Assembly: GCA_038209745.1 (NCBI GenBank)
Contig: JBBQXJ010000015.1
Span: forward strand, 1 to 64,000
Source: Verrucomicrobiota bacterium
Lineage (GTDB): Bacteria > Verrucomicrobiota > Verrucomicrobiia > Limisphaerales > CANJSG01
Length of the DNA stretch: 64,000 nt
Direction: 5' to 3'
Below, piece by piece: positions 45,001 through 54,000 of this stretch. Every line of letters starts with the position of its first letter. Within the stretch, counting starts at the first letter, position 1. Made by a program: the position numbers.

Positions 45001-48000
45001 GGCCAACCTGCTCGGTACCGGCGCCCGCCATCCGGAGCAAGGCGCCGCCGGGCACCGGACTCGCCGAACACACAAGACCACTGCGGCGGGAAATGGGCAA
45101 CGTGGCAATCTCGGCGAGCAGACATTCCGCGTTGGCGCGCATGGGTTCGCCCATCAGCAGCAGGAGCGCGACACAATTGAACCTGCCCATGCGGGCAGGA
45201 TCCGAGAGGACCCCGTCTCGTGGGTCCAAGGAAACGGAATCGATGAGGACGGGTTTGCCGTCCACGACGACATCGGTGCGGCTGCAATAGCGGGAGAAAT
45301 CCCACCGTTCGCCGCACGCGGCGCGGCCCGAACCGAGCCAGTCCACCAGCACGAGCCCGGAACTGGACGCCAGTTCGATGCGCTGCCGCTGTTCGTAGAT
45401 CGATTTCGCGAAGCATTGCACCGGATCGGGCGCGAGCACGAGCACTGCGTCCGGACCCGACGAGGCGAGCAGGTCATGGCGACAGGGGAATCCGTCCGGA
45501 TTGCGATAGATTTTTGTCGAGGACTGGGTTCCAAGGAAACAGCGCGCACCCTCACCGACAATGACTTCGAGGCGGGTTTGATCGCCCGCGACATAGCCGC
45601 CGCCGAGGCCGCTCGTGTAGGCCCACACGCTCGGGCCGCGCGGTTTCGGTACAAGGATCTTCAGAGGACTGAGCGCACGGACGCCCGTCGCGGCGCTCAA
45701 GCCGGAGACGAGCCGGACTTCAAGTCGACCGGCGCCGGCGCCGGAGGTTTCAGGGGCTGGAACGAAGCCCGCCGTCGGGTTCAAGGATGCCGTCCCCACG
45801 GGATAGTGCCGGTGTCCAACAGGTCGCGGGCAAGGCGTGAAACGGGGGGGAACGAGCCAACCAGGCAAGCTACGCGCTGATCGGGCCAGGAGATGGAACC
45901 GGATTTTCGGGCAACCTGGAGGACTTGCATGGTTTGACTCAGACCGTGAGATGTCGGCGGACGGTCTCGTTGTTCAATTCTTTCATCGGACCCGATGCGA
46001 CCACCGCGCCGCGATCCATGATGTAGAAGCTGTCGCCGACGCCGAGGCAGAAGTCGAGATACTGCTCGACCAGAAGGATGCTGATCTTTCCCTCGTTCTT
46101 GATCTTCACGAGGGTCTCGCCGATCAGGTCGATGATGTTCGGCTGAATGCCTTCGGTGGGTTCGTCGAGAATGAGGATCTTGGGATCGGTCAACAAAGCG
46201 CGGGCGATGGCGAGCTGCTGCTGCTGGCCGCCGGAGAGCACACCGCCTTTGCGCTGGAGGAATTCCTTGAGGATCGGGAACAGCTCCAATACGCGGTCGG
46301 TCTGGCCCGCGTCCTTCACGCCATGGACGACCCTGCTGATCTTCAGGTTTTCCCAGACCGTGAGGTGCGGAAAGATGTCGCGCCCTTGCGGCACGTACCC
46401 TAGGCCAGCGCGGGAACGGCCGTCGGCTTTCATACCATCAAGAACCCGCCCTTCGAGCGACACCTGTCCCTCGTCGACCGGGACCAGTCCCATGATGGCC
46501 TTGAGCGTGGTGGTCTTGCCGACGCCGTTGCGGCCCATGAGACAGACGAGGCTGTTCTTCGGCACGGTCAGGTTGACCCCGCGCAGGATGCGGGAGCCGT
46601 CGTAGGACACCGAAATGTCGGAAAGGGTCAGCATCGGGGAGAGGAGTAATGGAGTTTTGTTTTGTGCAGCAACCCAACACTCCAATACTCCCTTGGGCCA
46701 GGGGGACTCATCCGTGCTTCTCCTTCTTCTTCCGGCCGAGATAGACCTCGATCACCCGCTCGTCGTTCTGGACCTCGTCCACGGAGCCTTCGCAGAGGAC
46801 GTGGCCCTGGTGGAGCACGGTCACCTTCCGCGCGATCTGGCGGACGAAGACCATGTCGTGCTCGATCACGACGATGCTGTGTTTGCCGGCCAGGCTCATG
46901 AGGAGCTCTCCCGTCTTGGCCGTCTCCTCATCGGTCATGCCGGCGGCCGGCTCGTCGACGAGGAGGAGCTTAGGATCCTGCGCCAGCAGCATGCCGATCT
47001 CGAGCCACTGCTTCTGACCGTGGGCCAGCGAGCCGGCCTTCACCTTGGCCTTGGAGGCCAGGCCGACGGTTTCGAGAACTTCCTGGATCCGGTCCCTCTG
47101 CGCGTCCGTTATCCTGGAAAACAGGGTGGACCAGACGCTTCGACTCCCCCGGAGCGAGAGGAGGAGGTTCTCGTGGACGGAGTGGTCGACATAGACCGAG
47201 GGCGTCTGGAACTTCCGCCCGATGCCAAGACGGTTGATCTGATACTCGTTAAGCCGGGTCAGGTCGGTATCCGCCTCGAACTCGATCTTGCCGGCATCGG
47301 GACGGGTGCGACCGGTGATCAGGTCCAGGAAAGAGGTCTTGCCTGCGCCATTCGGTCCGATGATCACGCGCAGCTCGCCCCGGTCCATATAGAAGTTCAG
47401 GTCCGAGATGGCCTTGAAGCCGTCGAACGTCTTGGTGACGCCCTCCACGGCGAGGATGAATTCCTTGTTCATTCTTTGGTGGAGGATTCCAGCTCCGGCT
47501 TGGCCGCAGCCGGCGGTGGAGCCGTGGGCTTCTTGGACAGCTTCTTGATGATGGCCCGGAGCTGGCTGGGCAGGCCGATGATCCCCCGGGGCATGAAGAG
47601 CGTCACGAAGACGAACAGGCCGCCGAGAATGTAAGGCCACTGTTCGGCGAAGTTGTGCGTCGCGTAGCTCTTCAGCGAGTTGATCCCGATGGCGCCGAGG
47701 ATCGGCCCCAGGAGATTGCCGCGTCCGCCGACCGAGACCCAGATGACCGCCTCGATGGATTTCTCCGGCGACATTTCACTCGGGTTGATCCCGCCGATCT
47801 GCGGCACGGAGAGCGCCCCGCCAAGCGCCGCGATCACGGCCGCGACGACGAAGACGAACAGCTTGAAGTCGGCCGTGGCGTAGCCCGAGAAGAGCACGCG
47901 GTTTTCCGAGTCGCGGACCGCCCGTTGGATCAGTCCGAAACGTGTCGAAGTGAGCCATCGGCAGAAGAGATAGGTGAGCAGCAGCAGGACGCCGGACGCG

Positions 48001-51000: not shown

Positions 51001-54000
51001 CAACGGGTGGGCCAGGGCGAAGAGGTCGAGCGTGGTCTTGATGGCACGGCGGAGCTTGGACGTGTTGTCGGCCGGGGTGAGATCCGACACGGCGAAATGC
51101 AGCTCCTTGCCGGAGGCGTCGGTGATGAACTTGCCGTCGCGGATGCGGATGCCCTTTGCCTTGCCGTCGGTGTCCAGCTGGGTGTCGAGGACGATGGGCG
51201 AATTGGTTCCGCCCGGTGATTCGTAGAGGTAGAGCTCGCTGAGACGCCAAGCGATCAAGCCTCGTTCCACGAGGTCGTCTCCGGAGTCGACGAGCTGCTG
51301 CACCATCTCGCTCTGCTTCGAGGCGTCTTGCTCGAGCACCGCGTCGGCCAGGACGACGCGGTAGTCTGGCGCCGTTGCTTCCGCCCCGCAGGACGGGGCG
51401 ATCACGGCGAAACAAAAGACGAGCAGGCTGAGAATGCGTTTCACGATCGGTCAGTCTCGCCACGGGGCGAACCAGGGAAAAGCGGGGAGCGCGGGTCCAG
51501 GCCGGCGACGGTTCCTCCACCCAACAAAAAACGGAATCCGACAGGCTGGCTTCCGGTGCTGGCATTCCGCCGACCGGATGCCCGCGCTCCAAAAGGGGAT
51601 CTCCGGTTGTTCAGGAGCCGGAAGGAGCGGACCCCGCAGGATCCGCTCCTTCCTTCAGACAAAGCTTACTTCAGGAACTTCGCGCTGAAGGGCTCGGCGG
51701 CGACCTGCCTAAAGGTCTTGATGACCTTGAACTGTCCGGTCGGAAGGGTCTCTCCGATGAACACGTCGTTGATCAGGTGATGGTTCGCCTGCATCGTGAC
51801 TTCGGCCACGGGGCCCTTGAACTTCTGGCCGATGAGGGCGGGGCGGACCTTGTCCACCTCGAAGCTGCCCGCCTTCTCGACCGCCTGTTTCCAGAGATAC
51901 ACACCCATGCGGGAGAGGTTCATCGGGGAGCAGGTGACGCGGCCCTTGGGATCGACGCCGGAGACGGTGTAGTCGATGCCATAGATCTTCGGATCTTGCA
52001 CCCAAGAGAGGAAGTCGCCCACGAACTTCGTGTTCTCAGGCGTCTTGATGGACATGAAGTAGGTCCAGCAGCCGAGGTGGCCCGCGAGCTGCTTTGCGGG
52101 AAGGCCGCGGAACTCGTCTTCGGAAATCGAGAAGGAGACGACCGGACAATTCTCGGAGGTAAGGCCCGCGTTGGCGAACTCCTTGAAGAACGGGACGTTT
52201 GTGTCGCCGTTCAGCGTGGAGATGACGGTGGCGTTGCCGCCAGCGGCAAACTTCTTGATGTCCGAGACAATGGTCTGGTAGTCGGTGTGGCCGAAGGGGG
52301 TGTAGATCTCGACGATGTCGGAATCGGGGATGCCCTTCATCTTGAGATACTGCTTCAGGATCTTGTTCGTGGTGCGCGGATAGACGTAGTCGGATCCGAG
52401 CAGGAAAAACTTCTTCTTCCCTTCCCCGAGCATGTAGTCGACGGCGGGGATAGCCTGCTGGTTCACGGCTTCGGCGGTGTAGAAGATGTTCTGGGAAAGC
52501 TCCTCGCCCTCATACTGCACCGGGTAGAAAAGCAGGCCGTTGTGCTGTTCAAACTTGGGCAGCGCGAACTTGCGGCTCACCGAGGTCCAGCAGCCGAAGA
52601 CGACCGCGACCTTGTCCTTCACCAGCAGCTCCTCGGCCTTCTCCGCAAATGTGGGCCAGTCCGACTTCGGATCAACCACGACGGGCTCAATCATCTTGCC
52701 CATGACCCCGCCGGATTTGTTGACCTCGTCGAACGTGAACAGAAGAACGTCTTTCAGCGAGGTTTCGCTGATCGCCATAGTGCCGCTCAGGGAATGCAGC
52801 ACGCCCACTTTGACCGTGTCAGCGGCATGGAGAGGGCCAGTCAGACCGACAGCGAGACAGGCCAAGGTTGAAAGTGTTGTCTTGAAGATTGATATCATAG
52901 GTGAAATGGCGATAGAGTGGTGGTTTTGCTTGTCTGTGTTCAGTCGGTTTGGGGATGGGTTGGACCGAAGCCATAGGGCGAGAGAAATCGAATTGCGCTC
53001 GGAGTCACGCCAATCATATCTCTTGATTAGCATCTGAGATGCCACCACTCCGCTCCAGTCGGTGCATCAACAGAAGTTGGCCATAAATCCGCCAAAGACC
53101 TCCGAAGAGTTCATTCAATCACCGCGCCCGACCGCCAAGTTTGGCTCAAGCCGTCCAGAACCTAGCAGCGAATTGGGCTGGTTGTTCAATTCGCCGCACC
53201 CACAAGGCAGTCGGAAGAAAGCGGTGCTGAATCGGCGGCGCAAGCCACGCCCGCCAAGCGATCCGCTCGCGGCCCCTCTCACGACAAAATCACCCAGAGA
53301 CGATTTGAAGGAGTTCCTGCCTGATAGCCGAAAGGCCGGAGACATCGCCGCCTGATCTGTCCCCTGGCCGATGTGACCATATGTCGCTCCACGTCATGAC
53401 CAATCTCCAAGGTGCCGGAGTCCTAGGGAGGCCCGCCGAACCAATTGCCCGAGATCAACCCTGCTGGAACCCGGGGGATTGGCGCCACCTCTCAAGCCAA
53501 TAATCCATCCACCGATAACCTCCTGACGCTCGCCCGTTCAACGTGCGCCGCAGACTAATGAAGAAAATCCTCATCATCGAAGACGACACCATCACGGCGA
53601 ACGTCTATAGCAACCGCTTCCGCGTCGAGGGCTTCCAAGTCGAGGTCGCGGCGGACGGCGAAGCGGGCTTGGCGGCGGTCCGGAGTTTTCAGCCCGACGT
53701 TATCACCTGCGACCTGATGATGCCGAAACGCAACGGAGTCGAGGTCATCAGGGCCATCCGGGCGGATCCGTCGATCTCTTCCATCCCCATCATCGTCTTC
53801 TCGAACTCCTATCTGAGCACGATGATCAAGGATGCCTGGGCGGCGGGCGCCTCCAAGTGCCTTTCCAAGGCCGACTGCACCCCGAAACATCTCATCGAGA
53901 TCATCCAGAACCTGATCGCGACCCAGGCGGGTGGGGGCAGAGCGGTTGTCCCCGGACCGCCCGGCCAGACGCATGTCATGGCGAGGGCCCAGGCGGTCGT

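Follow-up and report, generated by a model that had tools for sequence, protein, structure and literature searches.

A YiiM-type MOSC gene lies between the permease genes urtB and urtC of a urea ABC transporter operon, next to the urease genes, in the window analyzed (the whole stretch of 64,000 nucleotides). As judged from sequence, catalytic cysteine and modeled fold, the gene product is an intact YiiM-type enzyme, for which Moco-dependent N-reductase activity is predicted. A few related uncultured bacteria keep the layout, an indication, short of proof, that the enzyme serves the use of urea, for example by reducing hydroxyurea. The explanation that we tentatively prefer is an intact, operon-resident, Moco-dependent N-reductase of the YiiM type that would reduce an N-hydroxylated nitrogen compound met in urea scavenging.

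ORF and profile annotation place all genes of the locus on the minus strand, in the order urtA, urtB, MOSC/YiiM gene, urtC, urtD, urtE, followed by the urease genes. The periplasmic urea-binding protein is encoded by urtA (51666..53048; TIGR03407, 504.1 bits, cut-off 492.75). The permease gene urtB (49720..51444) matches TIGR03409 over residues 264-570 (377 bits, cut-off 250.3) and carries an N-terminal extension of about 260 aa with a weak match to HEAT_2 (Pfam). The MOSC gene (49007..49720) is followed by the second permease gene, urtC (47469..49007; 512 aa), which matches TIGR03408 in two stretches (377 bits, cut-off 296.2); it carries an insert of about 120 aa (residues ~201-320) that it has in common only with the genomes G002 and G013. 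BPD_transp_2 (Pfam) was found in both genes flanking the MOSC gene. The ATPases are encoded by urtD (46708..47472; TIGR03411, 376.7 bits; start read from the sequence) and urtE (45939..46685; TIGR03410, 308.6 bits, cut-off 285.8). All five proteins score above the cut-offs of the NCBIfam equivalog models UrtA, UrtB, UrtC, UrtD and UrtE. The urease genes are ureD (44930..45868; Pfam UreD, 164.6 bits), ureAB for a fused gamma/beta subunit (44138..44902; NF009671, 331.9 bits), ureC for the alpha subunit (42420..44141; NF009686, 1010.4 bits), and ureF plus ureG (41012..42420; Pfam UreF in ORF 41752-42822, cobW/UreG in ORF 41012-42184). As in canonical urtABCDE operons, the five Urt equivalogs, the urea pocket of UrtA and the adjoining urease genes are present; unlike in these, an enzyme gene separates urtB from urtC, an arrangement of which no published account was found in a literature search.

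Both junctions of the MOSC gene read TGATG, with base 49720 common to the urtB stop and the MOSC start and base 49007 common to the MOSC stop and the urtC start. The urtC/urtD junction is a 4-base stop/start overlap, ATGA, with the ATG of urtD at 47472. The first-pass annotation had given this gene order with its coordinates and the overlaps of the MOSC gene with its neighbors; ORFs, Pfam and NCBIfam models and the sequence bear them out. The 237-aa MOSC reading frame has its ATG at 49720. An ORF of 254 aa that begins at 49771 is also present, and the shorter form was preferred because homologues such as P0005 begin like it. Contigs of other public runs span the urtB/MOSC junction (X2 record 15; X4 record 22, from a separate study) and the MOSC/urtC junction (X1 record 3). 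The urtB-MOSC-urtC layout is not an assembly artefact. The G+C content is continuous across the MOSC gene and there is thus no sign of recent foreign origin. A scan of positions 40500-54000 for promoter-like and terminator-like sites was uninformative, with 1 and 12 hits against expectations of 1.9 and 10.1, respectively.

The 237-aa protein contains the MOSC beta-barrel domain (PF03473, 115.7 bits, cut-off 22.7, residues 64-175) and, at the C-terminus, the three-helix bundle that is peculiar to YiiM (PF03475, YiiM_3-alpha, 35.2 bits, cut-off 22.7), which corresponds to helices 188-196, 202-209 and 216-228 in an AlphaFold model (pLDDT 85.9). The closest known systems are the YiiM proteins of E. 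coli (5YHI) and Geobacillus stearothermophilus (5YHH), both 6-N-hydroxylaminopurine resistance proteins, with which it shares the two-domain fold, the invariant cysteine and most of the residues modeled to contact Moco. The similarity to E. coli YiiM reported in the first-pass annotation was reproduced (5YHI, E 8e-36, query 38-226), and the match to 5YHH is stronger (E 9.3e-48). Foldseek aligned the model with 5YHH at E 1.1e-21 (TM 0.76 for the query, 0.92 for the target) and with 5YHI at an rmsd of 1.5 over 190 columns. Cys136 aligns with C120, described in excerpts of PMC5818509 as the invariant catalytic cysteine of E. coli YiiM (ecYiiM), and each of the 23 sequences aligned has this cysteine. 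The protein retains all 43 columns that do not vary within the family, the catalytic Cys included.

According to the same excerpts (PMC5818509), the ecYiiM residues modeled to hold Moco are R55, A56, N87, Q115, R117, S118, S200 and W201. Mapped from the alignment, five of these positions are retained (A74, N103, Q131, R133, W218) and three are changed (K73 for R55, E134 for S118, N217 for S200). The changes are polar, and the protein could, from its residues, still bind Moco. Genes for Moco synthesis (MoaC, MoeA, MoaE) are present in the genome, here called G000. Identity to the two characterized YiiM proteins is only about 36-40%, and the score against the 6-hydroxyaminopurine reductase equivalog NF008577 (148.7 bits) is below its cut-off of 294. 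The substrate of E. coli YiiM is therefore not transferable, either way. The MOSC gene also differs from free-standing YiiM genes in lying inside a urea ABC transporter operon.

The arrangement had been called unique to this species and devoid of support from conservation. Neither statement can be maintained. The order urtB-MOSC-urtC recurs in L042 (genome G175, of the same order and another family) and in L122, and the order MOSC-urtC recurs in L173; the MOSC copies of these three further contigs are 62-66% identical to the G000 copy and belong with it to one old lineage. The L042 and L122 loci have a 9-nt spacer after urtB where G000 has the TGATG overlap. In all three further loci the stop of the MOSC gene overlaps the start of urtC, as ATGA in L042 and L122 and as TGATG in L173. 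The layout is rare: of the 401 genomes of the order that were searched, 2 have it. A repeat of the order-wide search drew on nearly the same 401 genomes and brought nothing new. The earlier count for the order, 0 of 769 genomes, was a floor, as its author had warned; the layout does occur in G175, which belongs to that order. A class-wide search at E<=1e-80 gave matches in 3 of 401 genomes (G000, G663, G694), with no urt genes seen within 1.5 kb of the matches in G663 and G694. Within the family of G175, two of five genomes have a match, which lies in the urt operon only in G175.

The urt-embedded copies are under purifying selection: dN/dS is 0.19 at dS 0.18 between the L042 and L122 copies and 0.17-0.20 between G000 and either of them. 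The latter divergence, across which the position of the gene between the permease genes has been retained, is saturated in dS (1.6-1.8). In a careful MOSC tree of 42 rows one branch (100/96) sets the four urt-embedded copies apart from 21 copies whose location outside urt operons is known, and the four fall within a 10-row clade (98/94). Gene context was read for four of 17 clade rows, leaving out the 13 rows P0005-P0018. The embedded lineage carries substitutions at or next to the cavity, namely E134 for Q, N217 for S (ecYiiM S200) and V62 for Q.

The closest urt operons, in G002 and G013, do not contain a MOSC gene, and the operon therefore works without it. In the UrtC tree G002 is sister to G000 (99/93), and both group with G013 (100/99). 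Inspection by eye of the 64-nt urtB-urtC spacer of G002 revealed no recognizable deletion scar, and a comparison of the standalone YiiM region of G002 with G000 for synteny gave short ABC-type matches only. Import of the MOSC gene by recombination was also considered and lacks support: in 40-aa windows, the C-terminus of UrtB (95-100%) and the N-terminus of UrtC (70-100%) in G000 remain closest to G002, with L122, L042 and L173 less close.

According to the explanation preferred here, a small Verrucomicrobiota lineage would have taken a YiiM-type gene into its urea ABC transporter operon as a resident. The gene product would be made together with the permeases by way of the overlapping stop and start codons, and would reduce an N-hydroxylated nitrogen compound that the cell meets while scavenging urea. 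Two reactions are candidates, the reduction of hydroxyurea to urea, which is the more conjectural, and the reduction of hydroxylamine freed from hydroxyurea by urease. Either would shield urease as well as the cell, and would win back the nitrogen.

The strongest competitor, a serious one that we rank somewhat behind the preferred explanation, both being below even chance, holds that the enzyme detoxifies N-hydroxylated bases and hydroxylamines in general, as YiiM does in E. coli. Its link to the urt operon would be regulatory at most, through production under nitrogen limitation, a condition in which a wide range of nitrogen compounds is scavenged, and would not concern the substrate. The gene in the urt operon is the only YiiM-type gene found in G000 and in G175, the congeners G002 and G244 have the standalone type only, and no 3-alpha domain is present in the other MOSC protein of G000; the absence of a second YiiM-type gene on the one hand and the standalone genes on the other are consistent with a general detoxifier having simply been replaced. 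The relatives outside urt operons resemble stress genes: of the 46 loci examined, 7 have an HxlR-type regulator as immediate neighbor, and Nitrotoga loci have a peroxiredoxin. The operons of G002 and G013 do without the gene. Such a general role accounts less readily for the fixed place between the permease genes, with overlapping codons, across saturated dS, or for the cavity substitutions peculiar to the embedded lineage.

Within the preferred explanation, hydroxyurea as the substrate of the MOSC enzyme is rather doubtful and would follow from analogy with mARC1, a MOSC enzyme that reduces hydroxyurea to urea according to excerpts of PMC11513889. The same source gives CO2, ammonia and hydroxylamine as the products of hydroxyurea with urease; mARC enzymes also reduce hydroxylamines (excerpts of the review PMC10637980). 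As described in part of PMC4658187, hydroxyurea is a natural compound of animals, with levels of up to 250 uM, and of a Streptomyces. Human mARC1 has a homologous MOSC domain (Foldseek 6FW2, E 2.9e-4, 130 columns), and a two-electron N-reduction of the same kind may be expected. It differs in having an additional N-terminal beta-barrel (MOSC_N), where Pfam found only MOSC and YiiM_3-alpha in the protein studied here, and in working with cytochrome b5 and its reductase, partners that do not occur in the urt-MOSC operon. Hydroxyurea strongly prefers mARC1 and is handled poorly by mARC2, to which E. coli YiiM is placed nearer in redox potential (review PMC10637980, in the excerpts available). Literature searches found no test of YiiM with hydroxyurea, the two being co-mentioned in reviews only, and no report linking hydroxyurea, cycloserine and DcsB.

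An alignment with 8hic_A, in which the numbering is shifted by 23, as deduced from the agreement of all nine named residues with their letters, shows that UrtA keeps eight of eight conserved residues of the urea pocket and that the variable F192 is Y. The pocket is described, in the part of PMC10392092 available, as closed and with both urea nitrogens hydrogen-bonded. A pocket that is canonical and closed counts against the entry of hydroxyurea via Urt that the first-pass annotation had proposed. The only ribonucleotide reductase (RNR) found in G000 (92% complete) is B12-dependent class II, and a class I small subunit was not found in this 92% complete genome. The target of hydroxyurea in RNR is the class I tyrosyl radical. 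With class II as the only RNR found, the proposed RNR-protection benefit of hydroxyurea reduction is removed, and the proposal that the gene guards against a ribonucleotide reductase poison is weak here. It is unlikely, in our estimate, that the embedded lineage is a dedicated bacterial reductase of hydroxyurea (or of urease-derived hydroxylamine) cleaning the substrate stream of the urea transporter.

The natural substrates of the MOSC-domain reductases (YiiM, YcbX, mARC) are still debated, and the physiological occurrence of their known N-hydroxylated base substrates has been questioned (PMC10637980, in excerpts). A YiiM lineage kept for long in a urea uptake operon beside urease offers a concrete and cheaply testable substrate hypothesis. 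Hydroxyurea is known both to inhibit urease and to serve it as an alternative substrate, and it is naturally present with urea in animals. If the hypothesis is true, the enzyme would be the first hydroxyurea reductase from bacteria, one that sanitizes the intake of a transporter and turns a urease poison into food, and a MOSC/YiiM-type enzyme would gain a physiological substrate defined by its operon. If the link to hydroxyurea fails, the locus still shows a nutrient operon capturing a general detoxifier.

Another MOSC-type chemistry, such as reduction of nitrite to NO or a function in cofactor or sulfur handling, unrelated to N-hydroxy compounds of urea, is very improbable: close homologues occur often in Nitrospira, Nitrotoga and Brocadia, but all MOSC proteins assayed so far have N-reductive activity (excerpts of the review PMC10637980) and no gene of the operon points to nitrite. 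It is likewise very improbable that the gene is a neutral passenger, inserted once, without function in the operon and carried along since precise excision is rare, as the rarity of the layout and the absence of the gene from the closest operons might suggest; against this stand a dN/dS of about 0.19, the complete set of invariant family columns, start/stop overlaps maintained in four of four loci, and the presence of no other YiiM-type gene in the genome.

The YiiM homologues of the same order outside urt operons (G002, G244, G033) belong to the same family, with 52-57% identity, but fall on another branch, clearly set apart, and have unrelated neighborhoods; relatives often lie beside an HxlR regulator. 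A fused form, MOSC-3alpha-FNR-like-2Fe2S, occurs in G032.

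The locus was defined by six-frame ORFs, their translations and profile searches against Pfam and NCBIfam, which placed the urt, MOSC and ure genes in one minus-strand cluster: urtA (51666-53048), urtB (49720-51444), the YiiM-type MOSC gene (49007-49720, 237 aa), urtC (47469-49007), urtD (46708-47472) and urtE (45939-46685), followed on the same strand by ureD, a fused ureAB, ureC, and ureF with ureG. All five Urt proteins exceeded their NCBIfam equivalog cut-offs. The MOSC gene is flanked by TGATG on both sides and thus shares one base with the urtB stop and one with the urtC start; the urtC/urtD junction is an ATGA overlap, and the G+C content is level throughout the locus, with no break. 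Contigs of other public runs bridge the urtB/MOSC junction (X2 and X4) and the MOSC/urtC junction (X1). The first-pass annotation had placed the gene within the urea ABC transporter operon with overlapping codons, and the ORFs, profiles, TGATG junctions and bridging contigs bear this out.

The gene product is a YiiM-type enzyme, predicted to be intact. Pfam finds the MOSC domain at 115.7 bits and, at 35.2 bits, the three-helix domain specific to YiiM; the best solved relatives are the YiiM proteins of Geobacillus stearothermophilus (E 9.3e-48) and Escherichia coli (E 8e-36). Cys136 aligns with C120 of the E. coli protein, named as the invariant MOSC cysteine in the available text of PMC5818509, where the surroundings of the molybdenum cofactor (Moco) are modelled. 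By alignment to the positions described there, A74, N103, Q131, R133 and W218 are conserved, while K73 replaces R55, E134 replaces S118 and N217 replaces S200 (E. coli numbering second). An AlphaFold model (alignment of 23 sequences, pLDDT 85.9) matches G. stearothermophilus YiiM (5YHH) with a TM score of 0.92, normalised to the target, and also the MOSC domain of human mARC1 (E 2.9e-4). Moco synthesis genes for MoaC, MoeA and MoaE were found in the genome under study (G000). With the 6-hydroxyaminopurine reductase equivalog model the protein reaches 148.7 bits, short of the cut-off of 294, so it is an enzyme of the YiiM type without demonstrable functional equivalence to its E. coli counterpart.

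The arrangement, formerly held to be unique to this species, recurs. Genome and metagenome collections supplied 160 loci around relatives, and in three of them urt genes lie directly beside the MOSC gene: L042 (urtA-urtB-MOSC-urtC-urtD, MOSC identity 63%), L122 (urtA-urtB-MOSC-urtC-urtD-urtE-ureD, 62%) and L173 (66%), a contig that begins inside MOSC and continues with urtC-urtD. L042 belongs to genome G175, which has the same order as G000 and represents a different family. In L042 and L122, 9 nt separate the urtB stop from the MOSC start; the MOSC stop overlaps the urtC start as ATGA in these two and as TGATG in L173. Between G000 and L122 the MOSC proteins are 62% identical, a divergence comparable to that of UrtB (64%), UrtE (65%), UrtC (70-75%) and UrtD (74%). 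The dN/dS ratio of the MOSC gene (Nei-Gojobori script) is 0.19 for L042 versus L122 at a dS of 0.18, and 0.17-0.20 for G000 versus either, where dS is saturated. An intact YiiM-type gene is kept at one fixed site in the urea transporter operon under purifying selection, and the locus is real and conserved within a small lineage. The literature search returned, among the matches listed, no report of a MOSC domain together with a urea transporter or urtB; the fixed operon context is new, the enzyme family itself already known.

In a careful maximum likelihood tree of 42 YiiM-type proteins, a single branch (support 100/96) parts the four urt-operon copies from 21 copies of known non-urt context. 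These four fall within clades of 10 rows (98/94) and 17 rows (100/96); in the larger clade, the remaining 13 are database proteins available as sequence without DNA context. A quick tree built earlier from 83 rows agrees. Residues peculiar to the urt-resident lineage are V62, E134 and N217, located at the cavity or adjoining it, and others elsewhere. A YiiM-type gene was detected at E<=1e-40 in 28 of the 401 genomes searched in the order, flanked by urt genes only in G000 and G175. At E<=1e-80, a sample of 401 genomes from the class gave three: G000 and two others, in which urt genes are lacking within 1.5 kb of the match. On the UrtC tree the congener G002 is sister to G000 (99/93) and G013 joins both (100/99); the MOSC gene is absent between urtB and urtC in G002 (64-nt gap) and G013 (genes adjacent), so the history of the gene takes two or more events of gain or loss.

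The urt-resident gene could be a simple replacement of a general detoxifier, and the observed pattern is what this would give. No second YiiM-type gene was found in G000 or G175, the other MOSC protein of G000 lacks the 3-alpha domain, and the congeners carry the standalone YiiM type only. Outside urt operons, an HxlR-type regulator often adjoins the YiiM relative: in 7 of 46 loci (L043, L050, L090, L102, L125, L179, L196) it is the gene directly next to the standalone homologue. This is consistent with a stress role across the family as a whole. The urt-resident gene is not simply a relocated housekeeping copy of the genus, since the standalone proteins of congeners G002 and G244 group far away from it, in a clade of their own (100/98). 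There is no sign that a larger block was brought in; the G000 flanks are closest to G002 right up to both junctions.

Other surroundings of YiiM homologues were recorded. A peroxiredoxin adjoins the standalone gene in Nitrotoga loci, and a NapC/NirT cytochrome lies beside it in a Nitrospira contig (L059) and a metagenome contig (L146). Genome G032 encodes a 590-aa fusion of MOSC, YiiM_3-alpha, FAD_binding_6, NAD_binding_1 and 2Fe-2S ferredoxin domains (L017:4671-6443), which hints at the kind of electron donor serving YiiM-type enzymes. In one genus of the order (G274, L227:8815-14506; also L212, L215, L217 and L107) a homologue of 48-50% identity is found on the same strand as, and some 420 nt downstream of, a Liv-type ABC transporter operon comprising a binding protein, two permeases and two ATPases, with a divergent TetR gene; this is a second, separate YiiM association with this transporter family.

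As to function, the urt-resident enzyme would be made together with the transporter and may act on something accompanying urea use. N-OH reduction on a urea-like molecule would fit best by analogy, and any named substrate, including the hydroxyurea proposed in the first-pass annotation, would be a guess. According to PMC11513889, N-hydroxyurea is reduced by mARC1, with urea as the product, and urease breaks hydroxyurea down into CO2, ammonia and hydroxylamine. Hydroxylamines, too, are substrates of mARC enzymes (PMC10637980). Natural sources described for hydroxyurea are many animals, with levels of up to 250 uM, and Streptomyces garyphalus (PMC4658187), so a urea scavenger could meet it. Against this substrate, one review has hydroxyurea strongly preferring mARC1 and places the redox potential of E. 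coli YiiM nearer that of mARC2 (PMC10637980). UrtA retains all eight conserved residues of the urea pocket, which may also count against it; in the description of PMC10392092 the pocket is closed and makes six hydrogen bonds. The detoxifier-replacement pattern and the HxlR neighbours described above weigh in the same direction, as does the RNR inventory given below. YiiM and hydroxyurea were co-mentioned only in three reviews. Among the matches listed for UrtA and hydroxyurea, the sole one on bacterial urea transport was a cyanobacterial review whose available text leaves MOSC unmentioned and has a single mention of hydroxyurea, which is used as a urease inhibitor (PMC6737895). Conservation proved firmer than first feared, and the specific chemistry weaker than hoped.

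The only ribonucleotide reductase (RNR) found in G000 (92% complete) is class II, B12-dependent (NF005122, 1305.8 bits). The whole genomes of G000, G175 and G013 yielded no class I small subunit; G175 and G013 show class II only, and G002 has both class II and the class I small subunit. Hydroxyurea acts on the class I RNR radical, so the suggested benefit of removing an RNR poison is doubtful here.

Upstream of urtA, a divergent gene (53543-54853, plus strand) encodes a protein that has two response-regulator receiver domains, and a further gene (54938-56275, minus strand) encodes an OmpL-like beta-barrel porin. Identified by profile search, the two may be the regulator and outer-membrane entry of the cluster. 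UrtC carries an insert of about 120 aa (residues ~201-320, 48048-48407) with no Pfam match; of the relatives searched, only G002 and G013 have it too. The remaining UrtC proteins searched lack it, also those encoded in the MOSC-bearing loci L042, L122 and L173, so the insert is not tied to the MOSC gene. In UrtB an N-terminal extension (residues 1-262, 50659-51444) precedes the permease domain; it gives only a weak HEAT_2 match (23.6 bits, under the cut-off) and also occurs in relatives at 30-80% identity. At 59578-61740, a 720-aa open frame combines a low-molecular-weight phosphatase domain, RpiB and serine hydroxymethyltransferase, a candidate fusion or adjacent genes without intervening stops.
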